From positions 1 through 30,219 of the IMG/VR virus record IMGVR_UViG_2563366798_000006: a stretch of DNA of 30,219 nucleotides. The stretch is one strand, 5' to 3'. Below, one piece after another: positions 1 to 24,807 of the stretch (position 1 is its first letter; the number at the start of each line of letters is the position of its first letter). Below the pieces are notes generated by a model. That model did no database searches and had not been told where the DNA came from. It saw only the letters and a program-made list of their open reading frames with translations. Position numbers and translations under genes: made by a program. Origin of the DNA: a virus (Duplodnaviria; Heunggongvirae; Uroviricota; Caudoviricetes).

Positions 1-102
1 ATCACAAAGGCGGAGTTATCCCGCGTGGAGATAGTCGAGCTGCTCAGTCAGGAGTCGGAAAAATTTCACAATATCGGATTGTCTCGCGGGGAGGTGCTTT
101 GA
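1..102 (+). CDS. 3' end of an upstream phage early gene (5' end outside window)
   Basis: Frame 1 is open from the window edge to TGA at 100-102. In P2-type gene order the gene before orf80 sits here; identity not verifiable. Confidence 0.35.
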
Positions 103-401
103 TGTCCTGTTCTCATTCAGTTGTATTACTGAATAACGCCTTAAAAATCGCCGTTATGAAAAATGGCGATTTGTCTCTTATTCAACTTTGTCTTGATAAA
201 GAAAAACGCGACATCACTGAATCTGTTATCGCGATTTATCAGAATGAATTAAACCTCCTGTCTGATGTGGTCAATTTACTTGTTAAACGCGCTGTATTCC
301 ACAAGCAAATTTCCTCAGTGGATGAACTGACAAAATTAACGACAGAACTTGCCAGTTATTGCGCTGATGTATCCAGGAAACTTAACGATAAAAGGAGCTG
401 A
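102..401 (+). CDS. P2-family early-region hypothetical protein (orf80-like position)
   Basis: ATG at 102 preceded by GGGGAGGTG (88-96). The ORF track starts it at a TTG at 99. Placement by synteny upstream of the TraR-like gene and gene A. Confidence 0.5.
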   Translation: MSCSHSVVLLNNALKIAVMKNGDLSLIQLCLDKEKRDITESVIAIYQNELNLLSDVVNLLVKRAVFHKQISSVDELTKLTTELASYCADVSRKLNDKRS

Positions 402-403
402 TA

Positions 404-628
404 ATGCCGGACAACGTAGATTTTATTCAGGAGCAACAGGCTGAATTACTGGAGCGCCAGATTAACGCGGCAAGGGTAAAACATTGCGGTGCTTCTGCGC
501 TGGTTTGCGAAGAGTGTGACGCGCCAATACCTGCTGCCCGTCGTGCGGCTTATCCGTCAGCCACGCGTTGTGTTTCCTGTCAGTCAGTCTTTGAAACAAA
601 AAACAAACATTACCGGAGAATGGCATGA
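404..628 (+). CDS. TraR/DksA-family C4 zinc-finger protein (P2 Orf82-like)
   Basis: AAGGAG Shine-Dalgarno at 392-397. The 74-aa product has two Cys pairs (C..C and C..C) in the TraR/DksA C-terminal arrangement. Stop overlaps the next start (ATGA). Confidence 0.7.
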   Translation: MPDNVDFIQEQQAELLERQINAARVKHCGASALVCEECDAPIPAARRAAYPSATRCVSCQSVFETKNKHYRRMA

Positions 629-900
629 GTATTCGTATTGAAATTGGCGAACGTTATGTCGTTACCAGTGACAGCTTTCAGTTTATTCTCCACGAGAAAA
701 AGAGAGCGGAAAGCGGTAAAAACGCCGGTCAGGAATGGCTGGCGGTGGTTGGTTATTACCCGAAATTAAGCCAGCTCGTTTCCGGCCTGATGCATCACGA
801 TATTCTGACCGGAAGCGCAAAATCTTTTGCTGATTTAAACGCGCAGGTTGAGCAACTCAGCAAGCGTTGTTCAGAGGCTTTTGGCTCATATGGCCGTTAA
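625..900 (+). CDS. P2-family early hypothetical protein (orf83-like position)
   Basis: GGAGA SD 5 nt upstream of ATG 625. Start overlaps the preceding stop and its 3' end overlaps the gene A start. Confidence 0.5.
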   Translation: MSIRIEIGERYVVTSDSFQFILHEKKRAESGKNAGQEWLAVVGYYPKLSQLVSGLMHHDILTGSAKSFADLNAQVEQLSKRCSEAFGSYGR

Positions 901-3166
901 AGCCTCCGGGCGTTTTGTCCCTCCGTCAGCATTTGCCGCAGGCACCGGTAAGGCGTTTACCGGTGCTTATGCATGGAACGCGCCACGCGAGGCTGTCGGG
1001 CGCGAAAGACCTCTTACACGTGACGAGATGCGTCAGGTGCAAGGTGTTTTATCCACGATTAACCGCCTGCCTTACTTTTTGCGCTCGCTGTTTACTTCAC
1101 GCTATGACTACATCCGGCGCAATAAAAGCCCGGTACACGGGTTTTATTTCCTCACATCCACTTTTCAGCGTCGTTTATGGCCGCGCATTGAGCGCGTGAA
1201 TCAGCGCCATGAAATGAACACCGACGCGTCGTTACTGTTTCTGGCAGAGCGTGACCACTATGCGCGCCTGCCGGGAATGAATGACAAGGAGCTGAAAAAA
1301 TTTGCCGCCCGTATCTCATCGCAGCTTTTCATGATGTATGAGGAACTCAGCGATGCCTGGGTGGATGCGCATGGCGAAAAAGAATCGCTGTTTACGGATG
1401 AGGCGCAGGCTCACCTCTATGGTCATGTTGCTGGCGCTGCACGTGCTTTCAATATTTCCCCGCTCTACTGGAAAAAATACCGTAAAGGACAGATGACCAC
1501 GAGGCAGGCATATTCTGCCATTGCCCGTCTGTTTAACGATGAGTGGTGGACTCATCAGCTTAAAGGCCAGCGTATGCGCTGGCATGAGGCGTTACTGATC
1601 GCTGTCGGGGAGGTCAATAAAGACCGTTCTCCTTATGCCAGTAAACATGCCATTCGTGATGTGCGTGCACGCCGCCAGGCAAATCTGGAATTTCTTAAAT
1701 CGTGTGACCTTGAAAACAGGGAAACCGGCGAGCGCATCGACCTTATCAGTAAGGTGATGGGCAGTATTTCTAATCCTGAAATTCGCCGGATGGAGCTGAT
1801 GAACACCATCGCCGGTATTGAGCGTTACGCCGCCGCAGAGGGTGATGTGGGGATGTTTATCACGCTGACCGCGCCGTCAAAGTATCACCCGACACGTCAG
1901 GTTGGAAAAGGCGAAAATAAAACCGTCCAGCTTAATCACGGCTGGAACGATGAGGCATTTAATCCAAAGGATGCGCAGCGTTATCTCTGCCGTATCTGGA
2001 GCCTGATGCGCACGGCATTCAAGGATAATGATTTACAGGTCTACGGTTTGCGAGTCGTCGAGCCACACCACGACGGAACGCCGCACTGGCATATGATGCT
2101 TTTTTGTAATCCACGCCAGCGTAACCAGATTATCGAAATCATGCGTCGCTATGCGCTCAAAGAGGATGGCGACGAAAGAGGAGCCGCGCGAAACCGTTTT
2201 CAGGCAAAACACCTTAACCGGGGCGGTGCTGCGGGATATATCGCGAAATACATTTCAAAAAATATCGACGGCTATGCACTGGATGGTCAGCTCGATAACG
2301 ATACCGGCAGACCGCTGAAAGATACTGCGGCGGCTGTTACCGCATGGGCGTCAACGTGGCGCATCCCGCAATTTAAAACGGTTGGCCTGCCGACAATGGG
2401 AGCTTACCGTGAGCTACGTAAATTGCCTCGCGGCGTCAGTATTGCTGATGAGTTTGACGAACGCGTCGAGGCTGCTCGCGCTGCCGCAGACAGTGGTGAT
2501 TTTGCGTTGTATATCAGCGCGCAGGGCGGGGCAAATGTCCCGCGCGATTGTCAGACTGTCAGGGTCGCCCGTAGCCCGTCGGATGACGTTAACGAGTACG
2601 AGGAAGAAGTCGAGAGAGTGGTCGGCATTTACGCGCCGCATCTCGGCGCGCGTCATATTCATATCACCAGAACGACGGACTGGCGCATTGTGCCGAAAGT
2701 TCCGGTCGTTGAGCCTTTGACTTTAAAAAGCGGCATCGCCGCGCCTCGGAGTCCTGTCAATAACTGTGGAAAGCTCACCGGCGGTAATACTTCGTTACCG
2801 GCCCCCTCGCCTTCTGAGCACGCCGCAGCAGTGCTTAATCTGGTTGATGACGGTGTTATCGAATGGAATGACCCGGAGGTCGTGAGGACGCTCAGGGGTG
2901 CATTAAAACACGGCCTGAAAATACCAAATCGTCAGCAAAGAAACGGAAGCCCGTTAAAACCACATGAAATAGCACCGTCGGCCAGGCTGACCCGGTCGGA
3001 ACGATTGCAAATTACCCGTATCCGCGTTGATCTCGCTCAGAACGGTATCAGGCCGCAACGATGGGAGCTTGAGGCGCTGGCGCGTGGCGCGACCGTAAAT
3101 TATGACGGGAAACCTTTCACTTATCAGGTCGCTGATGATTGGCCGGGATTTTTGTTACCCATTTGA
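890..3166 (+). CDS. A: Rolling-circle replication initiator protein A (HUH endonuclease)
   Basis: Product contains PHWHMMLF (HUH-type His motif) and GYIAKYISK (paired catalytic tyrosines Y-x3-Y), as in P2 gpA. Start placed at ATG 890 (MAVKASGRF...); the ORF track's 848 is a TTG. Confidence 0.88.
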   Translation: MAVKASGRFVPPSAFAAGTGKAFTGAYAWNAPREAVGRERPLTRDEMRQVQGVLSTINRLPYFLRSLFTSRYDYIRRNKSPVHGFYFLTSTFQRRLWPRIERVNQRHEMNTDASLLFLAERDHYARLPGMNDKELKKFAARISSQLFMMYEELSDAWVDAHGEKESLFTDEAQAHLYGHVAGAARAFNISPLYWKKYRKGQMTTRQAYSAIARLFNDEWWTHQLKGQRMRWHEALLIAVGEVNKDRSPYASKHAIRDVRARRQANLEFLKSCDLENRETGERIDLISKVMGSISNPEIRRMELMNTIAGIERYAAAEGDVGMFITLTAPSKYHPTRQVGKGENKTVQLNHGWNDEAFNPKDAQRYLCRIWSLMRTAFKDNDLQVYGLRVVEPHHDGTPHWHMMLFCNPRQRNQIIEIMRRYALKEDGDERGAARNRFQAKHLNRGGAAGYIAKYISKNIDGYALDGQLDNDTGRPLKDTAAAVTAWASTWRIPQFKTVGLPTMGAYRELRKLPRGVSIADEFDERVEAARAAADSGDFALYISAQGGANVPRDCQTVRVARSPSDDVNEYEEEVERVVGIYAPHLGARHIHITRTTDWRIVPKVPVVEPLTLKSGIAAPRSPVNNCGKLTGGNTSLPAPSPSEHAAAVLNLVDDGVIEWNDPEVVRTLRGALKHGLKIPNRQQRNGSPLKPHEIAPSARLTRSERLQITRIRVDLAQNGIRPQRWELEALARGATVNYDGKPFTYQVADDWPGFLLPI

Positions 3167-3426
3167 GTAAAAATACAGCGTGATTTTATATGTCTTTGAA
3201 TGGATTATGCGAAGCACCTCTAAGGTAGATGAGGAGCAATAGCGTGTTGAATCAGAAGGCTAAATTGTATTGAATCGTTAGCATGTAATTGAAGGCAGCT
3301 ATTTGATTCGAGTCATAAAAGAGCATCTATTTCGGTTAATAAAACCATTGCGAGTGACTTTATGTCGAAGCATAATTCATCTCGAGCGAAGTCTTGCTAG
3401 TCTTTCATCGGATTGATGACGGGCGC

Positions 3427-3456
3427 AAAAAAACCACCCTGGCAGGTGGTTTTTTT
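3427..3456. terminator. Bidirectional intrinsic terminator (A-tract / GC stem / T-tract)
   Basis: AAAAAAACCACC-CTGGCA-GGTGGTTTTTTT: 6-bp GC-rich stem ACCACC/GGTGGT flanked by A7 and T7 runs, so it can terminate transcripts on both strands. Confidence 0.6.
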
Positions 3457-3468
3457 GTTTGAAGCATA

Positions 3469-3582
3469 CTAAAGAAAAATACTTACATGGATATTACTGA
3501 CGTTTACTGACAAACCACTCGGACTACCATATGGATAGCCAAAGAGGGCCAGAACGAGAATGCAGTAATAGCACTTCTTCAT
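3469..3582 (-). CDS. Candidate small ORF (37 aa, MKKCYYCILVLALFGYPYGSPSGLSVNVSNIHVSIFL)
   Basis: Minus-strand ATG at 3582-3580 preceded by a perfect AGGAGG SD (spacer CGAT). Stop TAG at 3471-3469, 12 nt before the terminator hairpin. Hydrophobic N-terminus. Not in the ORF track because it is under 60 aa. Confidence 0.25.
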   Translation of the reverse strand: MKKCYYCILVLALFGYPYGSPSGLSVNVSNIHVSIFL

Positions 3583-4238
3583 ATCGCCTCCTGTAAGCAG
3601 AGGGCAATTTCCGCCGATATATGCGCTTCTAAGGCGGAGTGACTATTGAGCGAAGTCTTGCCCTGAAATAATGCTCTGTTTAAACGCAAAGTGATCTGGC
3701 ATATCACTGAACAGAGAACCTGAACAACACAACATATAGTATGTCGTTGTTTCTGGTTGCATTTTATGTTGTGTAATACTGGTTTTGCATCAAGGATGTT
3801 TGAGCTTTTTTTGATATAGCTCAAAGTAAAAAGCAGAGACTACGGATGATAAGGTCTTGAAAGCAATGTAAATTTTTTAAAGTTGTGAGTGGCTAGAAAT
3901 GCACAGTTTCAATATGGCGGATTTAAACAAGTAATTAAAAATAGCGCCATAAATTCCAATAAAATCATTATGTTGCGTTTTCTGTGGAAACTGCGGTGAC
4001 TCTGAAATTTTCTTTTAGTGTCGCTGAGGTTTAACAACTCGCTGCGCAAGTAGTTAGTGTTTTTTTAACTCAATATCCTGATTTATAAGGTTTTTTATAA
4101 ATCGTGGGCTGATTGCGCGTATTCATCTCGTGTTATCAGCAAAGATAAGCGCTATATGCAAAACTGAATGCATATATGATGTCGAAAATGTTATGGGAAA
4201 ACGTGGATTAGTGTTATAGTAATGGCTGAAAAACAGCC

Positions 4239-4267
4239 TTGACATAAAATAACAACTGTGATATGGC
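4239..4267 (+). promoter_or_regulatory. Putative sigma70 promoter for the ImmA-like gene
   Basis: TTGACA (4239-4244), 17-bp spacer, then TGaTATGGC (TG at 4259-4260, hexamer 4262-4267), about 37 bp upstream of the ATG. The -10 is imperfect. Confidence 0.35.
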
Positions 4268-4303
4268 TGTGCATACTTAACTTTTTTAACGTAGGAGGCA
4301 ACC

Positions 4304-4789
4304 ATGAGCTATGCAGCTAAAAAACTGCTTGACCGCTATTGGGATCGCCGACTACCTGTCGATCCGTTTAAGCTTGCTAAAGCGTGGGGTGCTCGTGTTG
4401 AAGCACTTGAGGAATCGGCTTATAACAACGATGGGTTAAGCGGTCTGGCTGTCATCAAAAAGGGTGTCCATAGGATTTATTTTGATTCTAGTGAACATTC
4501 TAATCGTCAACGTTTTACTGTTGCACACGAGTTAGGTCATCATGTGCTGGGGCATACCCAGGACGGAGAGTACCATCGGGATAATGTCGGGAATTATTCA
4601 ACAGGTGCTCGTGATTACCGTGAGGTTGAAGCAAACAAGTTTGCTGCTGAGTTGTTAATGCCTGAGTCTGCTATACGTCAATTGGTATCCAGAGAAGGTA
4701 TTGATAGCACTTTGAGATTAGCAAGCATCTTTAATGTATCAGAAGCCGCTATGCATTGGCGCTTAAAGAGCTTAGGAATGGCTTATTAA
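4304..4789 (+). CDS. ImmA/IrrE-family (COG2856, M78-type) zinc metallopeptidase, no N-terminal HTH
   Basis: AGGAGG SD 7 nt upstream of ATG 4304. Product has FTVAHELGHHVLGH (HEXXH zinc motif) followed by EVEANKFAAELLMPE, the hallmark ImmA/IrrE arrangement. AT-rich coding sequence. Confidence 0.8.
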   Translation: MSYAAKKLLDRYWDRRLPVDPFKLAKAWGARVEALEESAYNNDGLSGLAVIKKGVHRIYFDSSEHSNRQRFTVAHELGHHVLGHTQDGEYHRDNVGNYSTGARDYREVEANKFAAELLMPESAIRQLVSREGIDSTLRLASIFNVSEAAMHWRLKSLGMAY

Positions 4790-4817
4790 TTAGCCTTTAA
4801 CTTTTAACCTGTTTAAA

Positions 4818-4855
4818 ATCACCTTTACGTTTGTACATGTAAGGGTGATTTTTTT
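4818..4855 (+). terminator. Strong intrinsic terminator / attenuator hairpin after the ImmA-like gene
   Basis: 11-bp stem ATCACCTTTAC / GTAAGGGTGAT (10 Watson-Crick pairs plus one G-U), 10-nt loop, followed directly by a T run to 4855. The right arm contains the AAGGGTGA SD of the downstream ORF, whose ATG is at 4856. Confidence 0.55.
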
Positions 4856-5455
4856 ATGGCTGATATTGATTTATCTGGACAGTCCCCAGAGCAAGGAACC
4901 ACTCCTAAGGGCGATTTAGATCCTGATATCCTTATAAGGCGAGATCGACGCGATGGTATAGAGCGTAGAAGTATGCGATTAGTGCTCTCTGCCGTTGTGC
5001 TTTGTTTTGCTTGTACATTTCTATGGCAGGGGCTTAACTTTGCTTTGGCTGTTGGAAATGGCTTGCTGGAAGCGAAAAGCAGTATTGCCACAGCGATAAC
5101 ACAAAAAGTAGATGCACAAACTTGTGTTTCAGCAGAAAAATGTTCTGCTTTATCTGCGGATCCGAAGATGGCTGATGAGAGGATAACACCATCTTCAGAC
5201 ACTAATAAAGTTAGAAAATCTATTTCTGGTTTATCCACCGATTGGTTATCGGCCAGTTCTCTAATAGCTATTGTTGCATTCATCCTTGGTGTGGGTTTAA
5301 CTTTGCTTTTGACTCTTCTTAAATCAGCATTTCAACACCCGACAGATAAAGACTTTAGAACAAAGTCGACATCTAATACTATTGAGTTGGCCACGCCAAT
5401 CAGTGAATTAATAATTGGTGTTCTGAATATAATTAAAGACAAACTATCTAAGTAA
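4856..5455 (+). CDS. Small membrane protein with two predicted transmembrane helices
   Basis: 199-aa product: charged N-terminus (RRDRRDGIERR), helix LVLSAVVLCFACTFLWQGLNFALAV, soluble segment, second helix LIAIVAFILGVGLTLLLTLL, amphipathic C-terminus. Its own terminator lies about 40 nt downstream. The start is sequestered in the upstream hairpin, so expression is uncertain. Confidence 0.5.
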   Translation: MADIDLSGQSPEQGTTPKGDLDPDILIRRDRRDGIERRSMRLVLSAVVLCFACTFLWQGLNFALAVGNGLLEAKSSIATAITQKVDAQTCVSAEKCSALSADPKMADERITPSSDTNKVRKSISGLSTDWLSASSLIAIVAFILGVGLTLLLTLLKSAFQHPTDKDFRTKSTSNTIELATPISELIIGVLNIIKDKLSK

Positions 5456-5496
5456 AGCATTAGTTGTGATTTTTTATTGGTTTTAGTGATAATACA

Positions 5497-5530
5497 TCTC
5501 CAGTACTTATTGTTACTGGAGAGTATTTTT
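5497..5530 (+). terminator. Intrinsic terminator after the membrane-protein ORF
   Basis: 9-bp stem TCTCCAGTA / TACTGGAGA (5497-5505 / 5514-5522), 8-nt loop, then GTATTTTT. It sits between the convergent gene ends at 5455 and 5538. Confidence 0.45.
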
Positions 5531-5537
5531 AGTCGTT

Positions 5538-6479
5538 TTATATTTTTAATGTTAGTGAATGATATTCACGAGAGTTCACGTTCGATGTGATGTAATCGGG
5601 GGCGTTAACACCAAGAATCGCAACGAGCAATCGGCAAATTAAAGCCTGCATTTGTTGTAATATGTCATCTCCATATTGATAATTGTTAATAGTGGTAAAG
5701 CCAAGTGGTTGACCATGAAACATAGCTTCATGAAAGTTTTCATTGCGGATGTTTGTAATGTTTTTTTTGCCTGTAACCCATGATGGTCGTGGTATGCCAT
5801 AAGTTTTGCAGATCCACTTCAAGCGCCTGGAGTGATTTAGAGTCTTTTCTGTACACTTGTTCTTTTCTGCCCATGTTAAAGCAAAGCAACTATCCAGTGC
5901 CATATAAAGATACTGGAATTTTTCGAAGCTAAGGTATTGTGGGTTTTGGGATAAAAATAGTGCATGCACTATTGCTGCTATATTTATTGGTGCGTGTTTG
6001 GTTTTTTTCTCGCTAGACATGTATTTGAGTGCTAATTCTATAACCTCTTTTTCAGAACACTTGACCAGAATAAAGTCAGTTAATTTGCTGGGTTTTATTG
6101 GGGTTGCGTCTAAAAAACCGGCATCAGTAGTTGTTAATCTTATCCCTTTGAAAAAAGACAGACACCACACAGCAAAATTGAGAGTTTCTAGTGAAGATGT
6201 ATTTTTTAATTTTAGTGAGTGTGTTTTGGGTAAGCCAAATACTCGTTGGCTAAAAGGCATTGTGGATATGCCTCCATTGAGGTTATATACTTCTTGGTTT
6301 CCTGGGTATATCCAACCGTTAATAACATTTCTGTGATTGTTTATAAGATTTGTTTTTTCCGCTAGACCGGGTAAAGTAAGTAAAGAAAAATCATCAGTTT
6401 CAACGTTAACCTCTACTGGATAGTATCCAAACTCAGCTTCAATATCATTGGATTGCTGTTCGTCAACTTTACCTTGCAT
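5538..6479 (-). CDS. Hypothetical 313-aa cargo protein; candidate HEPN-like (R-N-x3-H) abortive-infection protein
   Basis: Minus-strand ATG at 6479-6477 with GGAG SD 6 nt upstream. AT-rich. Product contains IRNENFHEAMF, which fits the HEPN R-x4-6-H motif. No Walker or other motif recognised. Confidence 0.6.
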   Translation of the reverse strand: MQGKVDEQQSNDIEAEFGYYPVEVNVETDDFSLLTLPGLAEKTNLINNHRNVINGWIYPGNQEVYNLNGGISTMPFSQRVFGLPKTHSLKLKNTSSLETLNFAVWCLSFFKGIRLTTTDAGFLDATPIKPSKLTDFILVKCSEKEVIELALKYMSSEKKTKHAPINIAAIVHALFLSQNPQYLSFEKFQYLYMALDSCFALTWAEKNKCTEKTLNHSRRLKWICKTYGIPRPSWVTGKKNITNIRNENFHEAMFHGQPLGFTTINNYQYGDDILQQMQALICRLLVAILGVNAPDYITSNVNSREYHSLTLKI

Positions 6480-6716
6480 ACATTGCTCCGGTCAAAAATA
6501 GGCTCGATAATTCTCGTAAGCCTATCATGTTCGCAAAGTATCCATACCTGTGGATTTTGTAAATTTAAGTTGATTTGTCATTAAATAAGCCGTGCATGCA
6601 ACAAGTGAATGTTTTTGCATGCGTCGGGGATGCCCGTTCCGGCTGCTTGCGGTCAGAGCTGGTGCGGATCCATAGTATCTAAGCAACTGCATTAAAACCG
6701 CCCTATGAAGCGGGCG

Positions 6717-6735
6717 GGCGAGGCGGGGAAAGCAC
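6717..6735. other. cos: cos site (19-nt cohesive-end sequence of P2-type phages)
   Basis: GGCGAGGCGGGGAAAGCAC matches the P2 cohesive-end sequence as I recall it. It lies where expected, between the TO region and gene Q. Confidence 0.6.
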
Positions 6736-6876
6736 TGCGCGCTGGCGGTGGTGCTGATTTTATTTTTTCAGCGTCTGAGCGCGTCGTGATGGCGTTTAGA
6801 TTGTTCGCCGGGGCGTTGGTTTGTCTGCGGGGTGTTTTGCGCGGAGGTAAGCGTGTGAGGGCGTGATGACGGGGTG

Positions 6877-6899
6877 TAAAAAAGCCGCCCGCAGGCGGC
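6877..6899 (-). terminator. Intrinsic terminator downstream of Q (minus strand)
   Basis: Hairpin GCCGCC-cgca-GGCGGC at 6884-6899; on the minus-strand transcript it is followed by a U run (plus-strand A run 6877-6883), starting 5 nt after the Q stop. Confidence 0.5.
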
Positions 6900-6904
6900 G
6901 ATGT

Positions 6905-7939
6905 TCAGCCGTTGTCAGTGTCCAGTGAGTAGTTTTTAAAGCGGATGACCTCCTGATCGAGCCAGCCGTTTATCTCGCGGATCCTGTCCTGTAACGGGAT
7001 AAGCTCATTGCGGACAAAGACCTTTGCCACTTTCTCAATATCTCCCAGCGACCCGACGTTCTCCGGCTTGCCGCCCATCAACTGAAAGGGGATGCGGTGT
7101 GCGTCCAGCAGGTCAGCGGCGCTGGCTTTTTTGATATTAAAAAAATCGTCCTTCGTCGCCACTTCACTGAGGGGGATAATTTTAATGCCGTCGGCTTTCC
7201 CCTGCGGGGCATAGAGAAACAGATTTTTAAAGTTATTGCGGCCTTTCGACTTAACCATGTTTTCGCGAAGCATTTCGATATCGTTGCGATCCTGCACGGC
7301 ATCGGTGACGTACATGATGTATCCGGCATGTGCGCCATTTTCGTAATACTTGCGGCGGAACAGCGTGGCCGACTCATTCAGCCAGGCAGAGTTAAGGGCG
7401 CTGAGATATTCCGGCAGGCCGTACAGCTCCTGATTAATATCCGGCTCCAGCAGGTGAAACACGGAGCCGGGCGCGAAGGCTGTCGGCTCGTTGAAGGACG
7501 GCACCCACCAGTAAACATCCTCTTCCACACCACGGCGGGTATATTTTGCCGGTGAGGTTTCCAGTCTGATGACCTTACCGGTGGTGCTGTAACGCTTTTC
7601 CAGAAACGCATTACCGAACACCAGAAAATCCAGCACAAAGCGGCTGAAATCCTGCTGGGAAAGCCACGGATGCGGGATAAATGTCGAGGCCAGAATATTA
7701 CGTTTGACGTAAATCGGGGAGCTGTGATGCACGGCAGCACGCAGGCTTTTTGCCAGACCGGTAAAGCTGACCGGTGGCTCATACCATCTGCCGTTACTGA
7801 TGCACTCAACGTAATCCAGAATGTCACGGCGGTCGAGTACCGGCACCGGCTCACCAAAGGTGAATGCCTCCATTTTCGGGGCGCTGGCGGTCATTTTTTT
7901 TGCCGCAGGTTGCGGTGTTTTCCCTTTTTTCTTGCTCAT
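6905..7939 (-). CDS. Q: Portal (capsid portal) protein Q
   Basis: 344-aa product at the size and position of P2 gpQ, first gene after cos on the minus strand. Start overlaps the P stop (ATGA). Confidence 0.88.
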   Translation of the reverse strand: MSKKKGKTPQPAAKKMTASAPKMEAFTFGEPVPVLDRRDILDYVECISNGRWYEPPVSFTGLAKSLRAAVHHSSPIYVKRNILASTFIPHPWLSQQDFSRFVLDFLVFGNAFLEKRYSTTGKVIRLETSPAKYTRRGVEEDVYWWVPSFNEPTAFAPGSVFHLLEPDINQELYGLPEYLSALNSAWLNESATLFRRKYYENGAHAGYIMYVTDAVQDRNDIEMLRENMVKSKGRNNFKNLFLYAPQGKADGIKIIPLSEVATKDDFFNIKKASAADLLDAHRIPFQLMGGKPENVGSLGDIEKVAKVFVRNELIPLQDRIREINGWLDQEVIRFKNYSLDTDNG

Positions 7940-18583: not shown

Positions 18584-21196
18584 ATGAGCACGAAATTTAA
18601 AACCGTTATCACTACTGCCGGAGCCGCGAAGCTGGCAGCCGCCACTGTTCCCGGCGGGAAAAAAGTAAACCTGTCTGCAATGGCTGTGGGTGACGGTAAT
18701 GGCCAATTGCCGGTGCCGGATGCCGGTCAGACGAAACTGGTGCATGAAGTCTGGCGTCATGCCCTGAATAAAGTCAGTGTGGATAACAAGAATAAAAACT
18801 ATATCGTGGCTGAACTGGTTGTTCCGCCAGAAGTGGGCGGCTTCTGGATGCGTGAGCTTGGTCTGTATGACGATGCCGGAACACTGATTGCGGTATCCAA
18901 CATGGCAGAAAGCTATAAGCCAGAACTGGCTGAAGGCTCCGGACGTGCGCAGACCTGCCGCATGGTTATTATTCTCAGCAACGTGGCGTCCGTTGAGCTG
19001 AGTATTGATGCCAGCACAGTGATGGCGACGCAGGATTACGTCGATGACAAAATCGCAGAGCATGAGCAGTCCCGCCGCCATCCTGACGCCACGCTGACAG
19101 AAAAAGGTTTTACTCAGTTAAGCAGTGCAACAAACAGCACCAGTGAGTCATTGGCGGCAACGCCAAAAGCGGTCAAGGCAGCAAATGACAACGCAAATTC
19201 ACGTCTGGCGAAAAATCAGAATGGTGCAGATATCCAGGATAAATCAGCTTTTCTGGACAATGTTGGCGTTACCAGCCTGACGTTTATGAAAAACAACGGC
19301 GAAATGCCGGTTGATGCTGATCTGAATACATTTGGTCCTGTTAAGGCTTATTCAGGTATCTGGTCTAAAGCAACGTCCACCAACGCAACACTGGAGAAAA
19401 ATTTCCCGGAAGATAATGCTGTCGGTGTGCTTGAGGTTTTTGCTGGCGGCAATTTTGCAGGCACGCAACGCTATACCACACGTGACGGAAATTTGTATAT
19501 CCGCAAACTCATTGGAACATGGAATGGTAATGATGGACCATGGGGAGCATGGCGCCATGTTCAGGCTGTAACGCGTGCTCTAAGTACGACCATTGACCTT
19601 AACTCTCTCGGTGGCGCAGAACATTTAGGTTTATGGAGAAACAGCAGTTCAGCAATAGCTTCTTTTGAACGACATTACCCTGAGCAGGGAGGAGACGCGC
19701 AGGGCATTCTGGAAATTTTCGAAGGTGGGCTATATGGACGCACGCAGCGTTATACAACCCGTAACGGGACTATGTATATTCGCGGCCTGACAGCCAAATG
19801 GGATGCAGAAAATCCACAGTGGGAAGACTGGATCCAAATTGGTTATCAGACCAGTAGTACCTTCTATGAGGATGACCTGGATGATTTGATGTCTCCGGGT
19901 ATTTACAGTGTGACAGGCAAAGCGACCCACACCCCAATCCAGGGGCAGTCTGGTTTTCTGGAAGTCATCAGGCGCAAGGATGGTGTCTATGTTTTGCAAC
20001 GTTACACGACCACAGGAACCAGCGCAGCTACAAAAGACCGTTTATATGAGCGAGTTTTTCTTGGTGGCTCATTTAACGCGTGGGGGGAGTGGCGACAGAT
20101 TTATAACTCAAACTCTTTGCCGTTAGAGTTGGGTATCGGTGGCGCAGTGGCAAAACTCACCAGCCTGGACTGGCAGACATACGATTTTGTGCCGGGCAGT
20201 CTGATAACCGTTCGGCTTGATAATATGACCAACATTCCCGACGGTATGGACTGGGGCGTCATTGATGGCAACCTGATAAACATCGCAGTTGGTCCGAGTG
20301 ATGATTCCGGTACGGGGCGCTCAATGCATGTATGGCGCAGCACTGTAAGTAAAGCGAACTACCGCTTTTTTATGGTGCGTATTTCAGGAAATCCGGGAAG
20401 CCGCACGATCACGACAAGACGTGTGCCAATTATCGACGAAGCTCAGACATGGGGCGCGAAACAGACATTCAGTGCTGGCCTTTCTGGCGAACTGTCCGGC
20501 AATGCGGCTACAGCTACAAAGCTGAAAACGCCAAGGACAATTAACGGCGTAAAATTTGACGGCTCGGCAAATATTGAAGCGTTTCCGCCAGGTGTTCCGC
20601 TGCCGTGGCCATCAGATACACCACCTGCAGGCTATGCGATCATGCAGGGGCAGACGTTTGATAAGGCTGCATATCCGAAACTGGCTATTGCCTATCCTTC
20701 TGGTGTTATTCCTGATATGCGCGGCTGGACAATCAAGGGCAAACCCGCCAGTGGGCGTGCCGTATTGTCACAGGAACAGGACGGGATTAAATCGCATACT
20801 CACAGCGCCAGTGCGTCAAATACGGACTTAGGAACGAAAACGACCAGTTCATTTGATTACGGGACAAAAACAGTCAGTACGTTTAACCACGGCACAAAAT
20901 CAACCAATACTTCTGGCAATCATACACATACCGTCGGTTTTGCTGTGAGCGTGCAATCAGGCGGTGCAGATTATGGTGTTCCGCGAAGTGATAAAGGTGC
21001 TACGACTACAAGTTCATCAGGCAATCATGCACATACAGTCGACATTGGAGCACATAACCATACTGTTGGTATTGGTGCACATTCACACACTGTTGCTATT
21101 GGCTCACACGGGCATTCCATTACCGTAAATGCTACTGGTAATACCGAAAACACCGTCAAAAACATCGCATTTAACTATATTGTGAGGCTTGCATAA
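18584..21196 (+). CDS. H: Tail fiber protein H (mosaic: P2-type N-terminus, internal triple repeat, collar-like domain, His-x-His C-terminus)
   Basis: The N-terminal ~200 aa match P2 gpH as recalled. 870 aa (P2 H is shorter, from memory). C-terminal part has a PWPSD...YPKL...DMRGW tail-collar-like motif and GNHTHTV / GNHAHTV / GAHNHTV / GAHSHTV / GSHGHSI repeats. Confidence 0.85.
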
Positions 21197-21774
21197 TGGC
21201 TTTCAGAATGAGTGCAGAAGCACAAACTATCCGCGTTTTCAATTTACTTGATGGAACCAATGAGTTTATTGGCGAAAGTGATGCATATATTCCGCCGTAT
21301 ACTGGCCTGCCTGCAAACAGTACAGATATTGCACCACCTGATATTCCTGCTGGTTATGCAGCCGTTTTCAATGCAGATGAAATGAAATGGGAGTTGATGG
21401 AAGATCATCGCGGAAAGACTGTCTACGAAACGAAAATGGGAGCAGCCATTTATATTTCTGAACTTGGCGCATTACCTCCAGACGTGACAGCCATTTCCCC
21501 GGAGGGGGATTATCAGAAATGGAACGGAAATGCGTGGGTGAATGATGAGAATGCAGAGCGTGATGCACTTGTCAGAGCGGCTGAGTCTCAGAAGAAAGAG
21601 CAGATTGCATATGCAGGTGAAATCATTGCCATGCTGCAGGATGCTGTCGATTTAGATATGGCTACCGAGGAAGAAAAGTTAAGCCTGACACACTGGAAAA
21701 AATACCGTGTGCTGCTTAATCGCGTTCAGCCGGAAAATGCTCCGGATATAGAATGGCCTGAAATGCCGCAATAA
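21196..21774 (+). CDS. G: Tail fiber assembly chaperone G
   Basis: 192 aa immediately after H; start overlaps the H stop (TAATG). Confidence 0.75.
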
Positions 21775-22072
21775 ATTGTATAAGCTCTGATGTGAGTTTA
21801 TACATCTATGGCACAGAGTAAAACCTAATCTGACTGTCCGCTCTGTGCTAGGAGCGGACGTGATGCATATCTGTCACCAAATTTAATGTGCCACTACAAA
21901 CAGAGTATATAGTTGAATATTATAGTGCACCCCGGCCTCATGAATATAACGGTGGATTACCGCCGAACGAGTCGGAAAATAGATACTGGAAAAACTCTAA
22001 AATCGAGGCCAGTTTTTGTTGTTCTCTACAATAATAATCGGATTTTCCCATGACAAGTTTAATAGTATTTAG

Positions 22073-23182
22073 GTGCCTGAAGTGAAGTTGAAGAAGCTAT
22101 TGATGAAAGTTGTGAAAGTGGTAAAGGAGCAGGTTCTAAGTACCGTTATTTCGGGAATAATAGGCATAGCGGCTACAGTAGGGCTTTTCCATTTCACTTC
22201 ACAGCCAATACGATCTGCTGATGTTCGCGAAAAATTAGTTGAAATGGCTCGGGAGTGCATCCAGCAGCAGCTTGCCACACATTTGGACTCAGTGGCGTTT
22301 GACTCAGTGGCTAGCGAGTCTCTCGATCTAAGCACCTCAAACTCCGTTGTAGTCTACGGAAGAGCTGTGAGCACAAATGGTGCCCTTAGCCGTTTCCTGA
22401 TGGTCTTCGAGCCCTCTGGACAGAGTTTGATAGATAAGGTGGTTGGCAGACCTGGATTCTACGATATTGGGTATTGGGCAATCATCCCAGACGCAGGGGA
22501 CGACGAGGTTGTGGCTTCTTCAGTAAACATTGAAGACCTCGACAAAGATGGTAACAAGGACATACTAGTCCGCTTAAAGTCAACTTACGCGGATGGTGTA
22601 TCCAAAGGGCTTCTTATACTTAAAAAGGATATCCATGATGTATGGCATTTGATGGGGCTTCCATCAATGACAGAGATCATGCATTCCATTGCTGCAGGTC
22701 AGCCTCCCCAGCCGGAAGGTCTTCACCTTCCACTTCCGGCAATACAATGGTTTAGTAATGACGAAAAACTCAAACCAAAGTCTGATATCAAACAATATCT
22801 TAATTGGGAAATTGACGAAGATAACTTGCAGGTCGCTGATTCCACTGGAAATCATTCTTTTTGGATGTTCAGAAACGGCACCAAGATAAAAATGTTCGAG
22901 AATGGACAAGCCGGCTACAAGCACTTTGGTGTACTGGTCAACATCAATGATGAAGAGGCGATACAGGGAAGGCATCATCTCATGGTCAGCTTTTTCAAGA
23001 TAGAGAATAATAGTTTGGTTCCTGATCCGAATTGGAACTGGGCCTATCCCATGTTCTCTATCGGATTAGAGGATAGCCAAGAAGTTGAATTGAGTGACAT
23101 GCAGGAAGCGGGCTTACAAGCTCATGTTTCTGGTAGCTCCGTTTTCGGCCTGACAGAGTTTGGGAAAATGGACTCAGATTAA
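22073..23182 (+). CDS. Cargo gene at the Z/fun hotspot position: N-terminally membrane-anchored 369-aa protein of unknown function
   Basis: AT-rich ORF between G and FI. Lys-rich N-terminus then one hydrophobic helix (VLSTVISGIIGIAATVGLFHF), predicted N-in/C-out, and a ~330-aa soluble domain with a DLDKDGNKD motif. The track start is GTG 22073; an in-frame ATG at 22103 is an alternative. Confidence 0.6.
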   Translation: MPEVKLKKLLMKVVKVVKEQVLSTVISGIIGIAATVGLFHFTSQPIRSADVREKLVEMARECIQQQLATHLDSVAFDSVASESLDLSTSNSVVVYGRAVSTNGALSRFLMVFEPSGQSLIDKVVGRPGFYDIGYWAIIPDAGDDEVVASSVNIEDLDKDGNKDILVRLKSTYADGVSKGLLILKKDIHDVWHLMGLPSMTEIMHSIAAGQPPQPEGLHLPLPAIQWFSNDEKLKPKSDIKQYLNWEIDEDNLQVADSTGNHSFWMFRNGTKIKMFENGQAGYKHFGVLVNINDEEAIQGRHHLMVSFFKIENNSLVPDPNWNWAYPMFSIGLEDSQEVELSDMQEAGLQAHVSGSSVFGLTEFGKMDSD

Positions 23183-23493
23183 TATTCGCTAACCTTACCA
23201 ACGAAGAGCAGGTCACAGGTATGGCCTAATTATGTTTTCAGAGGAGTCAGGGCTCAAGAATGCCCCCAGATAAGCCGTAAATCCTGTAGCGCAAAATCGT
23301 CTCAGATGACGCAGAGATATTAAAAACGCCTCAACCTGTTCATCAATTAATTGATAGGTTGAACTGTTAGTTAAACTTTCACCAGCAGAAAGGTATGAAC
23401 TTTTTCGACTCGCTCAAAGCTGGCTGTCAGAGCTGATAGCGTTTTGGCTACGTAAATTGTCAGTTGGAAACTGAGCGAGTACAAATCAAGACT

Positions 23494-23520
23494 GGCGGGC
23501 TGATTGCCCGCCTTTTCTTT
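23494..23520 (+). terminator. Intrinsic terminator downstream of the Z/fun-position cargo gene
   Basis: GGCGGGC-tgatt-GCCCGCC perfect 7-bp GC stem followed by TTTTCTTT. Confidence 0.5.
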
Positions 23521-23616: not shown

Positions 23617-24807
23617 ATGAGCGACTATCATCATGGCGTGCAGGTGCTGGAGATTAACGACGGCACCCGCGTCATTTCCACCGTATCCACCGCCATTGTC
23701 GGCATGGTCTGCACGGCCAGCGATGCGGATGCGGAAACCTTCCCCCTCAATAAACCGGTGCTGATTACCAATGTGCAGAGTGCGATTGCAAAGGCCGGTA
23801 AAAAAGGCACGCTGGCGGCGTCGTTGCAGGCCATCGCTGACCAGTCAAAACCGGTCACCGTTGTTGTGCGCGTGGAAGACGGCACCGGCGACGACGAAGA
23901 AACGAAACTTGCGCAGACCGTTTCCAATATCATCGGCACCACTGACGAAAACGGTCAGTACACCGGACTGAAAGCCCTGATGGGGGCTGAGTCGGTTACC
24001 GGCGTTAAACCGCGCATTCTTGGTGTGCCGGGGCTGGACACCAAAGAGGTTGCCGTCGCACTGGCATCGGTATGCCAGGAACTGAATGCATTCGGGTATA
24101 TCAGCGCATGGGGCTGTAAAACCATTTCCGAGGTGAAAGCCTACCGCCAGAATTTCAGCCAGCGTGAGCTGATGGTCATCTGGCCGGATTTCCTCGCATG
24201 GGATACGGTTACCAGTACCACCGCCACCGCGTATGCCACCGCCCGTGCGCTGGGGCTGCGCGCTAAAATCGACCAGGAGCAGGGCTGGCATAAAACGCTG
24301 TCCAACGTCGGGGTAAACGGTGTTACCGGCATCAGCGCATCTGTATTCTGGGATTTGCAGAAGTCTGGCACTGATGCTGACCTGCTGAACGAGGCAGGCG
24401 TCACAACGCTGGTTCGCCGCGACGGTTTCCGTTTCTGGGGTAACCGTACCTGCTCCGATGACCCACTGTTCCTCTTTGAAAGCTACACACGCACCGCGCA
24501 GGTACTGGCTGACACGATGGCTGAGGCGCACATGTGGGCTATTGATAAGCCCATCACCGCAACACTGATTCGCGACATCATTGATGGCATCAATGCCAAA
24601 TTCCGCGAACTGAAAAGCAACGGTTATATCGTGGATGGCACATGCTGGTTCAGTGAAGAATCCAACGATGCGGAAACCCTCAAGGCCGGAAAACTGTATA
24701 TCGACTACGACTATACCCCGGTGCCTCCCCTCGAAAACCTGACCCTGCGCCAGCGTATTACTTCTAGATACCTGGCAAGTCTGGTCACCTCGGTTAACAG
24801 CAATTAA
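23617..24807 (+). CDS. FI: Tail sheath protein FI
   Basis: 396 aa, GGAG SD, P2 gpFI size and position. Confidence 0.9.
   Translation: MSDYHHGVQVLEINDGTRVISTVSTAIVGMVCTASDADAETFPLNKPVLITNVQSAIAKAGKKGTLAASLQAIADQSKPVTVVVRVEDGTGDDEETKLAQTVSNIIGTTDENGQYTGLKALMGAESVTGVKPRILGVPGLDTKEVAVALASVCQELNAFGYISAWGCKTISEVKAYRQNFSQRELMVIWPDFLAWDTVTSTTATAYATARALGLRAKIDQEQGWHKTLSNVGVNGVTGISASVFWDLQKSGTDADLLNEAGVTTLVRRDGFRFWGNRTCSDDPLFLFESYTRTAQVLADTMAEAHMWAIDKPITATLIRDIIDGINAKFRELKSNGYIVDGTCWFSEESNDAETLKAGKLYIDYDYTPVPPLENLTLRQRITSRYLASLVTSVNSN

Follow-up and report, generated by a model that had tools for sequence, protein, structure and literature searches.

Three separately exchanged cassettes of putative toxin type occupy the tin/old position of a P2-like phage

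The DNA analyzed here, referred to as the window, is the full 30,219-nucleotide stretch of a tailed phage record (IMGVR_UViG_2563366798_000006). Comparison with reference P2 (NC_001895) gave 96.4% identity over positions 1–3150, where P2 homology ends; it restarts at 6688, and the annotated cosR of P2 is matched exactly by the 19-mer GGCGAGGCGGGGAAAGCAC at the right-hand limit of the region (Table 1). The cargo coordinates 3167–6716 proposed in the first-pass annotation therefore match a real homology break. That annotation had also held that tin and old, the AT-rich lysogenic-conversion cargo that P2 carries in the same slot between gene A and cos, were replaced by unrelated DNA. This was borne out, as tblastn searches with P2 Tin, Old, and Orf91 gave a best E value of 0.29 against the island and no match at E ≤ 1e-3 in the whole window, and the PADLOC Old and Tin models had no match among the three proteins of the island. 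GC content is 0.384 across the island (3167–6587) versus 0.540 in the rest of the window, with a minimum of 0.459 among all 3421-nt windows to the right of the island, and GC3 of the three island genes is 0.36, 0.29, and 0.32 versus 0.55 for A, 0.65 for Q, and 0.71 for the terminase. The view of the region as exchangeable, compositionally foreign cargo at the gpA–cos–gpQ hotspot, in place of orf91–tin–old, is thus supported.

All three open reading frames described previously are present, namely an ImmA/IrrE peptidase, a 199-aa protein with two membrane segments, and a convergent 313-aa protein (ORF313), and none completes a named defence system in PADLOC v2 (2023 version), as had been suspected. 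As to the expression signals claimed for each gene, hairpins flank the 199-aa gene, and promoter-like hexamers occur upstream of ORF313 and of immA, but the 13 promoter-like sites in the region are not above the shuffled expectation of 9.6, and such signals are therefore weak evidence. Left of the peptidase gene lies a 1.1-kb stretch (3167–4303) in which the longest ORF is 81 aa. It matches 150 of 5426 Escherichia coli genomes, never with an annotated feature at that place. A unit within it, M1, was overlooked in the first-pass annotation and is without RefSeq annotation.

Table 1. Features of the gene A–Q interval (window coordinates)
Feature	Position	Strand	Details
Gene A	848–3166		Left flank of cargo region; Pfam Phage_GPA 1e-123
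M1, type-I-toxin-antitoxin-like module	3167–3931	.	Conserved, unannotated; directly 3' of gene A; GC 0.390
Candidate antitoxin sRNA (~78 nt)	3383–3460	+	5' seed, covarying middle hairpin, intrinsic terminator; promoter-like -35 3348–3353, -10 CATAAT 3371–3376
Seed copy of 14-nt direct repeat GAGCGAAGTCTTGC	3384–3397	+	Exact repeat; 5' end of sRNA candidate
Bidirectional intrinsic terminator	3426–3457	.	Common to convergent mRNA and sRNA; 13-nt arms, 100% complementary, A-run/T-run flanks
37-aa ORF MKKCYYCILVLALFGYPYGSPSGLSVNVSNIHVSIFL, putative membrane toxin	3469–3582	-	SD GGAGG at 3587–3591 (reverse complement)
Second copy of repeat GAGCGAAGTCTTGC	3648–3661	+	Complementary target site on minus-strand mRNA, 66–79 nt upstream of AUG
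immA upstream region	3932–4303	+	Promoter-like TTGACA (4239–4244), TG-extended -10, SD AGGAGG; read from sequence
M2, peptidase/two-TM protein cassette	about 4185–5476	+ (genes)	
M2a, 161-aa ImmA/IrrE (M78, COG2856) Zn-metallopeptidase	4304–4789	+	Peptidase domain only; PF06114 3.8e-21
Terminator-like hairpin	4815–4852	+	3' arm holds the only SD-like sequence; U-run ends 3 nt before TM-gene ATG
M2b, 199-aa two-TM protein, putative membrane effector/toxin	4856–5455	+	Hydropathy: TM1 ~41–66, TM2 ~131–155
Bidirectional hairpin	5497–5522	.	Separates convergent TM gene and ORF313; 9 base pairs, detected on both strands
M3, ORF313, solitary 313-aa protein, putative RNase effector	5538–6479	-	Beta-rich N-domain (~1–140), helical HEPN-like C-domain
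cosR (P2 cos)	6717–6735	+	Right-hand limit of cargo region
Portal Q	6905–7939	-	Right flank of cargo region

The small ORF of M1 has 37 codons in all variants, with substitutions distributed by codon position as 4/9/16 and 9/5/16, an excess at the third position; nonsynonymous changes are frequent (13–14 of 23 and 21 changed codons), and the hydrophobic stretch of the peptide spans only ~13–15 residues. An upstream in-frame extension to 88 or 97 aa, found in some databases, was rejected, as it is interrupted by a stop codon here and frame-shifted on plasmids. The convergent sRNA candidate folds at a minimum free energy of -31.9 kcal/mol (z = -4.6). Its middle hairpin shows compensatory changes in four of nine pairs, with 92.5% of cells paired compared with 44–63% in slid controls; the covariation score was reached by 17 of 500 shuffles, modest support because only six distinct sRNA sequences are available. 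The -10 element CATAAT and its 7-nt spacing to the seed are conserved in the phage, plasmid, and Citrobacter copies. Two exact copies of the 14-nt repeat occur in the window where 0.02 would be expected by chance, and the duplex of the first 20 nt of the sRNA, containing this seed, with the mRNA was calculated at -28.9 kcal/mol (shuffles: mean -14.9, best -23.5). The terminator, at which mRNA and sRNA would also overlap, is invariant in all homologues. No convincing promoter could be placed for the mRNA, because a conserved TTGATG lies 21 nt from a conserved TAAAAT.

The first ~765–843 nt of the M1 region are kept at 86–94% identity in relatives with different cargo or none. Full-length, 37-codon homologues of the ORF were found by tblastn on 392 Klebsiella and Enterobacter plasmids, 332 of them conjugative, at identities from below 60% to 65%. 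M1 is carried by both phages and conjugative plasmids. The parts that recur on these plasmids and in Citrobacter are the leader hairpin, target copy, SD, ORF, terminator, seed copy, and sRNA -10, which are invariant while the flanks diverge; both repeat copies, in particular, are unchanged in the Klebsiella, Enterobacter, and Citrobacter versions. M1 is entirely absent from reference P2.

The layout of M1 is that of a type I toxin-antitoxin-like locus, with a putative toxin and a candidate antisense sRNA. The loci tisB/istR-1, zorO/orzO, and dinQ/agrB are type I toxin-antitoxin systems with limited-complementarity sRNAs. In these loci and timP/TimR, the leader is long and structured, and a neighboring small RNA with a terminal intrinsic terminator base-pairs through its 5' end with the leader at a site far upstream of the ribosome-binding site; the predicted layout of M1 is the same in these respects. 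The ORF is of toxin size, TimP having 38 aa compared with 37 in M1 and, likewise, an N-terminal hydrophobic segment (PMC7667032). In the known loci the sRNA gene lies upstream and is divergent, whereas in M1 it lies downstream of the ORF and is convergent, with a common bidirectional terminator and an added 3' overlap. M1 also differs in matching no Rfam family (ryfA/timP RF00126 included), in having no LexA box, and in being found on P2-like phages and conjugative plasmids rather than at a fixed chromosomal site. A ~330-nt minus-strand mRNA would encode the hydrophobic peptide. The 5' 14 nt of the plus-strand sRNA would base-pair with the leader ~70 nt ahead of the start codon, and the sRNA would also pair with the mRNA 3' end at the common terminator. 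Such pairing would keep the peptide untranslated, by the same logic as in tisB/istR-1 and timP/TimR.

M2 comprises the peptidase gene and its downstream neighbor. The region upstream of immA is conserved in P2DC1, and similarity to the cassette of strain OHT76-1 begins at 4185. M2a matches the PADLOC capP model (1.1e-30, model positions 8–153 of 242) and the C-terminal half only of RmrA (6e-17), and its best PDB match is the peptidase domain of CapP (7t5t, 7.6e-7). H75-E76-x2-H79 and the E109 position (E or H) are kept in eight homologues at 42–88% identity, and the sequence contains no HTH, no GAF, and no cysteine. M2a has a peptidase domain homologous to those of CapP/CapH, IrrE/DdrO, and ImmA/ImmR (PMC13228613) and retains HExxH and the third ligand, but it lacks the central HTH, the C-terminal GAF domain with its ssDNA-binding groove, the cysteine switch, and an adjacent HTH substrate gene, its conserved neighbor being a membrane protein.

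That neighbor, M2b, has no match in Pfam, PADLOC, or NCBIfam and no similarity to any known toxin; it falls in PHROG 8096, labelled function unknown. None of its 51 homologues in Enterobacterales and Vibrio has a Pfam domain, and the TM2 core AFILGVGLTLxLTLLK is near-invariant. An AF2 model of low confidence (mean pLDDT 66.6) places helices at residues 25–88, 116–159, and 181–198. The peptidase had been called an orphan, which does not fit its surroundings, as the TM gene lies immediately downstream in all eight independent contexts examined: three P2 variants, a Serratia chromosome, a Vibrio integrative element, a siphovirus-like prophage, an Enterobacter plasmid, and a Pectobacterium prophage end. 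The intergenic stretch folds at -25.1 kcal/mol, and an equivalent hairpin with a different stem sequence abuts the second ATG in seven of eight homologous loci, that of Vibrio included; only L036 has none. On the Serratia chromosome the pair adjoins a Rosmer-like pair, and on the Enterobacter plasmid it is near a zeta toxin.

M2 fits best as a RosmerTA-like protease/membrane-toxin pair without the HTH domain. RosmerTA (RmrT/RmrA) is said to go back to Millman et al. 2022. As in RosmerTA and the NetFlax network, where ImmA is documented as a promiscuous antitoxin hub of RosmerTA-like defence systems (PMC10440598), the gene for a COG2856/M78 Zn-peptidase is closely linked to that of a variable partner of unknown fold, on phages and plasmids and in defence-associated neighborhoods. 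Unlike RmrA, M2a has no N-terminal XRE HTH, the hallmark of that family; the partner is a two-TM protein matching no RmrT model, the peptidase gene comes first with a terminator/RBS hairpin between the genes, and toxicity and defence are putative for M2. The peptidase would be made in excess and would restrain or gate the effector; the simplest way would be to bind or cleave one of its cytoplasmic segments. The hairpin would throttle effector synthesis by termination and by sequestering the RBS. Membrane damage would follow when infection or DNA damage upsets this balance.

In M3, the motif R-N-x3-H-E and an acidic residue upstream of it are invariant. R-x4-H with N after R is the HEPN signature as defined in PMC3710099. 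Structural matches to HEPN are weak, and no Pfam HEPN family or PADLOC ApeA, PD-T7-3, or PD-T4-2 model was matched. A homologue in Pseudomonas aeruginosa lies in an ICE-like island ~3 kb from an OLD-type ATPase and UvrD (Gabija-like) pair, and one in Aeromonas stands alone. ApeA (10.64898/2026.01.26.701840), DARNA/PD-T7-3 (10.64898/2026.02.22.705581), and PrrC/RloC resemble M3 as stand-alone genes with an Rx4H motif, a non-catalytic domain that may be a sensor, and mobile-element or defence-hotspot contexts. M3 is not ApeA, which is ~580 aa, all-helical, and of three domains; DARNA is 456 aa with the HEPN at its N terminus. M3 is probably a single-gene abortive-infection RNase of predicted HEPN-like type, in which detection of an infection cue by the conserved N-terminal domain would unleash RNA cleavage, the target probably being tRNA or mRNA as in ApeA and DARNA.

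The first-pass annotation treated the three genes as one module, and they could be imagined as one defence system in which, for instance, the protease would be the sensor, and the RNase and the membrane protein would be a first and a second effector. They are indeed contiguous and ≥98.8% identical in 46 of 5426 E. coli genomes and in Salmonella phage MET_P1_103_31; however, this very uniformity points to one recent lineage. ORF313 occurs at 74–81% nucleotide identity without ImmA and TM, and with other neighbors, in 52 other E. coli genomes. It stands beside cos with at least four other upstream partners (P2-EC67 ORF73 and ORF226, a DUF2158 set, a DUF3850 and IS2 set, and a DinI-like set), and homology begins at 5644 in four prophages with other partners. 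Conversely, ImmA and TM occur without ORF313 in P2DC1, OHT76-1, Serratia, Vibrio, Enterobacter, and Pectobacterium, with direct joining to cos at 5476|6586 in two relatives (L012 and L002), and in an empty-site relative (L006) position 3927 is joined directly to 6581. ORF313 is also convergent, with a bidirectional hairpin between it and the TM gene. A single three-gene system is thus very improbable and already contradicted by distribution; related prophages, plasmids, and chromosomes split the island into three separately exchanged units.

Each unit has its own alternative. M1 may belong to the phage backbone, as a regulatory region or the 3'-UTR of gene A, or may be what is left of former, decayed cargo, its ORF and repeat persisting by chance or for another reason, or the peptide might be, for example, a harmless secreted or membrane protein. 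Its position directly after gene A, kept whatever the cargo, the unplaced promoter, and the short hydrophobic stretch would agree with this, as would small pseudogene-like intergenic stretches at these hotspots, which are recombination remnants according to De Sousa et al. (PMC13586616). We consider it unlikely, as the same architecture recurs outside any P2 backbone, its functional elements are invariant amid divergent flanks, and its absence from reference P2 means that it is not essential backbone. The type I reading of M1 is preferred. Less likely still is that M2a is an anti-repressor or counter-defence enzyme cleaving an XRE-type repressor whose gene lies elsewhere (the repressor of a prophage or ICE, or a CapH-like protein regulating a host immune operon), with M2b an unrelated lysogenic-conversion or superinfection-exclusion protein. 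All characterized relatives cleave HTH repressors (PMC13228613, PMC2701414), CapP is the best HMM and PDB match, and exclusion is a frequent role of prophage membrane proteins; but an HTH gene adjoins the peptidase in none of the eight contexts, M2a lacks the GAF and HTH domains through which CapP/IrrE bind ssDNA and CapH (PMC13228613), and the conserved hairpin over the TM-gene RBS argues for a coupled, tightly dosed pair. For M3, it is doubtful that ORF313 is no nuclease, with an R-x4-H motif and a helical bundle present by coincidence and another role such as a structural or regulatory moron function.

Experiments have established the gpA–gpQ interval as a reservoir of defence systems (PMC9122126, PMC9519451, PMC13586616), and from this location and the domain content a defence function of the cargo is plausible. 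We consider it reasonably likely that the island represents three independently acquired toxin-type cassettes of addiction or abortive-infection build: a type I toxin-antitoxin-like module, a protease/membrane protein pair, and a HEPN-type RNase.

The window is a P2-like prophage whose first 3150 nucleotides (1-3150) share 96.4% identity with reference P2 (NC_001895). Because P2 homology breaks after 3150 and returns only at 6688, P2 orf91-tin-old have been replaced by an island of other cargo; an exact copy of the annotated P2 cosR 19-mer follows at 6717-6735. The three ORFs that the first-pass annotation had described in the slot between gene A and cos were present, and its statement that none of them resembles Tin or Old was confirmed by tblastn searches with P2 Old, Tin, and Orf91, in which the best match in the island had E = 0.29 (3.7 for Tin, 253 aa) and nothing was returned at 1e-3 across the whole window. 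P2 Old is a protein of ~586 aa with an ABC-type ATPase and a TOPRIM domain; the island ORFs are all of 313 aa or less, and the PADLOC Old model (2023 release, as used throughout) was without match. Homology of the island to Tin, Old, or Orf91 was ruled out by direct tblastn. The AT-rich shift was borne out when GC content was computed, with 0.384 in 3167-6587 versus 0.540 in the remainder of the window and 0.459 as the lowest value for any window of equal length to the right of the island. The third codon positions of the three island genes follow suit (GC3 of 0.36, 0.29, and 0.32 versus 0.55-0.71 in A, Q, and terminase). Copies of this 3.9-kb segment with an identity of 98.8% or more are present in Salmonella phage MET_P1_103_31 and in 46 of 5426 complete E. 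coli genomes.

The observations of the first-pass annotation therefore stood, but its interpretation was only partly supported, since the proposal of one three-gene module was refuted by the distribution of the genes across related loci. In a relative without protein cargo, window position 3927 is fused directly to 6581. In P2DC1 and strain OHT76-1, the peptidase and two-TM protein genes are followed at once by the cos region (5476 joined to 6586) without the gene for the 313-aa protein (ORF313). Conversely, ORF313 at 74-81% nucleotide identity adjoins cos in 52 other E. coli genomes and in P2-EC67 (AM157369), with ORF73 and ORF226, a DUF2158 set, DUF3850 and IS2, or a DinI-like set in a 186-like phage as its upstream partners. 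The P2-EC67 ORF313 reportedly derives from Odegrip et al. 2006. A single three-gene system is thus ruled out and, because related loci show these breakpoints, the island is divided into the units M1 (small ORF and candidate sRNA), M2 (peptidase and two-TM protein), and M3 (ORF313), the lesson being that genes side by side in a hotspot do not equal one system.

Features of the island and its flanks (window coordinates)
Feature	Position	Strand	Remarks
Gene A	848-3166		Left flank of island; Pfam Phage_GPA 1e-123
Unit M1	3167-3931		Limits from breakpoints in related loci
Promoter-like site of sRNA candidate	-35 3348-3353, -10 3371-3376	plus	-10 CATAAT
Exact 14-nt direct repeat GAGCGAAGTCTTGC	3384-3397 and 3648-3661		0.02 expected by chance
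Perfect bidirectional terminator	3426-3457
37-codon ORF MKKCYYCILVLALFGYPYGSPSGLSVNVSNIHVSIFL	3469-3582	minus	SD GGAGG 4 nt before ATG
Unit M2	about 4185-5476		Upstream region from 3932; limits from breakpoints in related loci
Unit M3	about 5477-6587		Limits from breakpoints in related loci
Portal gene Q	6905-7939	minus	Right flank of island

The longest ORF in 3167-4303 is of 81 aa, and all 150 E. coli genomes with this stretch leave it without an annotated feature. Its first 765-843 nt are nevertheless kept, at 86-94% identity, before AAA-ATPase pairs, retron Ec48, an IS, or nothing. This segment carries a 37-codon ORF, which encodes a small (<60 aa) hydrophobic product, has its own ribosome-binding site, and is kept on plasmids. 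Next to this toxin-size ORF, the sequence signals of a candidate sRNA gene (promoter and terminator) are present and conserved. The promoter-like site would launch an RNA of ~78 nt exactly at the first repeat copy, terminating at 3426-3457; this RNA is predicted to fold as a seed, a hairpin, and a terminator (MFE -31.9 kcal/mol, z = -4.6). The 5' end of the sRNA candidate is the complement of a site in the minus-strand mRNA leader, 66-79 nt 5' of the AUG, with a duplex energy for its first 20 nt (14-nt seed included) of -28.9 kcal/mol versus -14.9 ± 2.3 for shuffles. The two transcripts would additionally overlap at the common terminator.

Full-length homologues of the 37-aa product, at below 60% to 65% identity, were found by tblastn on 392 Klebsiella/Enterobacter plasmids, of which 332 are conjugative; none of these copies is annotated. 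A search with the exact double-repeat pattern gave further matches in one Citrobacter genome and 8 IMG/VR contigs. The plasmid layout is identical in kind (leader hairpin, target copy, SD, 37 codons, same terminator, seed, and sRNA -10/-35), the functional elements being invariant and the flanks diverged. The middle hairpin of the sRNA candidate keeps its shape with different sequences: among only 6 distinct sequences, 4 of the 9 base pairs show compensatory changes, and the share of paired cells is 92.5%, versus 44-63% in slid controls. Substitutions in the 37-codon ORF are biased to third codon positions. Public gene callers have placed products of 37, 68, 88, 97, and 149 aa over the small ORF (3469-3762 minus; P0173, P0175, P0187), the length depending on the variant, in some of which the upstream frame is open. 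In the window a TAG closes this frame, leaving a separate 39-aa ORF at 3643-3762. The 88- and 97-aa calls are interrupted by a stop codon in the window and, on the plasmids, do not stay in frame; the conserved coding unit in M1 is the 37-aa ORF.

Two conserved nested inverted repeats were seen in the presumed mRNA leader (3677-3784, minus), one formed by CTCTGTT...AACAGAG with an inner GTGAT...ATCAC and kept on Klebsiella and Enterobacter plasmids, and the other with arms at 3717-3736 and 3765-3784; processing or translational inertness are possible roles. No sigma-70 promoter could be placed for the M1 mRNA, where conserved TTGATG and TAAAAT lie 21 nt apart. A search for LexA (SOS) boxes showed no enrichment, and the sole near-match in M1 has one mismatch. 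ISVsa5 (IS4-like) lies inside the hotspot in some strains (H27, NZ_CP182145.1, 2111-7350; L007, 5639-6847), and in L007, a degraded prophage, it cuts M1 after about 620 nt.

The closest analogue of M1 is timP/TimR (PMC7667032). TimP is a 38-aa protein with a signal-like N terminus, and the leader of its mRNA pairs with the sRNA 5' end (PMC7667032). M1 shares the sRNA-mRNA complementarity of the tisB/istR and timP/TimR class, through the 14-nt seed and target and the terminator overlap. It differs in the position of the sRNA gene, which is downstream and convergent in M1, whereas that of timP/TimR is upstream and divergent. It also differs from the described RNA families (ryfA/timP, istR, sok, and others) in having no Rfam membership: at two thresholds, no family was matched at E <= 10 beyond weak terminator-driven matches, and ryfA/timP were absent. 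Judged by these sequence features, M1 is somewhat more probably than otherwise a new type I toxin-antitoxin-like family.

The 161-aa protein of M2 is a member of M78/COG2856 that consists of the peptidase domain alone. It matches PF06114 (3.8e-21), PADLOC capP (1.1e-30, model positions 8-153 of 242), 14 PADLOC RmrA models (6e-17 to 5e-7) in their C-terminal halves only (model start ~140-215), and, in the PDB, CapP 7t5t (7.6e-7, residues 75-155 of 291). A gene for an M78 peptidase of ~161 aa was found directly 5' of a homologue of the gene for the 199-aa TM protein in all 8 contexts inspected, namely three divergent P2-type prophages, a Serratia chromosomal island beside a Rosmer-like HTH-peptidase pair, a Vibrio harveyi element with serine recombinases, a siphovirus-like prophage, an Enterobacter plasmid near a zeta toxin, and a Pectobacterium prophage end. 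All of these peptidases share H75-E76-x2-H79, and either E or H occupies the third-ligand position, E109. The TM proteins have a variable, low-complexity N-terminal tail, and their TM2 (AFILGVGLTLxLTLLK) and C-terminal helix are conserved. A strong terminator-like hairpin, with a stem sequence that differs by locus, lies between the two genes in 7 of the 8 loci; its 3' arm holds the sole SD-like sequence, and its U-run stops at most a few nt before the ATG. This arrangement implies that the TM product is kept scarce relative to the peptidase.

Two named families had to be weighed against M2. Like CapP/CapH and IrrE/DdrO, the M2 peptidase has an M78 Zn-peptidase domain with HExxH and a third ligand. 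CapP and IrrE also have HTH and C-terminal GAF domains that bind ssDNA and CapH (PMC13228613), but the central HTH and the GAF domain with its ssDNA groove are missing from the 161-aa protein, in which no HTH Pfam match was obtained. It is likewise devoid of cysteine and so lacks the cysteine-switch loop seen in a subset of CapP proteins. An adjacent XRE HTH gene of the CapH/DdrO/ImmR type was not found: none is called beside it in any of the loci from Serratia, Vibrio, phage, plasmid, or Pectobacterium, and in window 3167-4303 no ORF reaches 82 aa and neither RefSeq nor the phage record has an annotated gene. Nor did a hidden HTH gene or pseudogene turn up in this stretch, which holds short ORFs only, as read by eye, and is empty in RefSeq. 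Membership in CapP/CapH was ruled out on the lack of HTH, GAF, CapH gene, and cysteine. With RosmerTA, M2 shares a peptidase domain of the RmrA type, and the gene adjacent to it in 8 of 8 contexts would be the toxin partner, but the N-terminal XRE HTH fusion of RmrA is missing and the TM protein matches no PADLOC RmrT model.

ImmA-type proteases are promiscuous antitoxins in RosmerTA-like defence systems (PMC10440598). Together with this role, the constant pairing and the hairpin dosing support a reading of M2 as a putative protease/membrane-toxin cassette, in which the protease would act on the effector and not on a repressor. In P2DC1 (OU784750, 3355-3979) the TM gene is annotated from an internal start as 159 aa; the ATG directly 3' of the conserved hairpin gives a homologue of the window TM protein of ~207 aa. 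In the Serratia loci (L013/L014, 6463-8246), a gene for a 223-aa protein overlaps one for a 371-aa HTH_3 and Peptidase_M78 protein about 1.8 kb 3' of the peptidase-TM pair. As these form a RosmerTA-type pair, two ImmA-protease cassettes of different architecture lie side by side.

ORF313 has 603 homologues across the Gammaproteobacteria and, at E <= 1e-3, 650 cluster representatives, of which almost all have ~300 aa and match over their full length. No Pfam, NCBIfam, or PADLOC model matches it, Pfam scans of 41 close and 10 distant relatives gave nothing, and its only database label is one UniRef cluster name, "Apea-like HEPN". A confident AF2 model (pLDDT 83.4, pTM 0.84) has a beta-rich N-domain and a helical C-domain; with this model Foldseek returned no match in PDB or BFVD, and a profile search against PDB sequences gave spurious RNR-R2 matches only. 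Among 41 close and 23 distant members, down to 26% identity, R244 and H249 never vary, conservation of N245 is 90% or higher, and E250 is near-invariant. E185, D195, and H86 are also invariant, and the exact Ex3[KR] spacing is absent. HEPN RNases are defined by Rx4-6H in which a polar residue follows the R, together with an acidic residue upstream (PMC3710099); ORF313 carries all of these, although it matches no curated HEPN HMM. ApeA is a helical protein of ~580 aa with N, Mid, and HEPN_ApeA domains (10.64898/2026.01.26.701840), from which ORF313 differs in its 313 aa, its modelled beta-rich N-domain, and the lack of a PADLOC ApeA match at E <= 1; identity with ApeA or with DARNA/PD-T7-3 was ruled out by HMMs and architecture. 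The ORF313 gene is solitary, and the Aeromonas copy stands alone between housekeeping genes. The most likely function predicted for ORF313 is that of a compact HEPN abortive-infection RNase that works as a single protein and has its sensor domain at the N terminus. In P. aeruginosa (L020-L023, 9984-12960), an ICE-like island (DUF932, ParB_N) contains the ORF313 homologue, at a distance of about 3 kb from a Gabija-like pair of an OLD-like TOPRIM ATPase and a UvrD helicase.

Both the gpA-gpQ hotspot and its function as a reservoir of defence systems are firmly established in the literature (PMC9122126, PMC9519451, PMC13586616). Three related loci (L004, 5837-7861; L005, 5758-7942; L008, 5837-8229) have protein cargo between cos and portal gene Q, comprising two different AAA-ATPase pairs and the retron Ec48 RT with its membrane effector, unlike the window, in which the cargo precedes cos (compare 6581-6904). 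The hotspot therefore has two insertion points flanking cos. The second P2 hotspot, the Z/fun position between G (tail-fibre assembly, 21196-21774) and FI (sheath, 23617-24807), holds a 369-aa ORF (22073-23182, plus) inside an AT-rich region of ~20750-23500 with local GC of 0.40-0.46; neither Pfam nor PADLOC gave a match for this ORF.

The island is not categorically new, and each unit belongs in kind to a recognisable class: type I toxin-antitoxin for M1, ImmA-protease toxin-antitoxin or defence for M2, and HEPN Abi for M3. Each nevertheless fails at least one defining feature of its nearest named family. No description of M1, M2, or M3 was found in the literature searched, and RefSeq accessions, the 37-aa peptide, and the repeat sequence gave no literature match. 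It can only tentatively be proposed, as a joint reading, that M2 is an HTH-less ImmA/IrrE peptidase acting directly on a membrane toxin with no repressor and M1 an undescribed family of convergent, terminator-sharing sRNA type I toxin-antitoxins. Equally doubtful is the part of that reading in which the M1 family would have been spread by P2-like phages and Klebsiella conjugative plasmids, unseen by current annotation.

The island adds three candidates within 3.4 kb, all experimentally tractable, to a proven source of new anti-phage systems, and two of them have unusual designs, an HTH-less ImmA protease tied to a membrane protein and a putative convergent, terminator-sharing sRNA/toxin pair. 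The M2 pair is a clean cloning target, given its conservation across eight contexts, and, if the proposal is true, would broaden the ImmA/IrrE paradigm, until now that of a protease cleaving an HTH repressor, to include a membrane effector under direct control. ORF313, if a HEPN protein, would be among the smallest stand-alone HEPN immune proteins, from a family without a Pfam model. The ~0.8 kb that passes for "intergenic" DNA in about 390 plasmids and 150 complete E. coli genomes probably codes for a small toxin with its RNA antidote, a reading with consequences for the stability of plasmids and prophages and for studies in which hotspot DNA of this type is regarded as debris of recombination.
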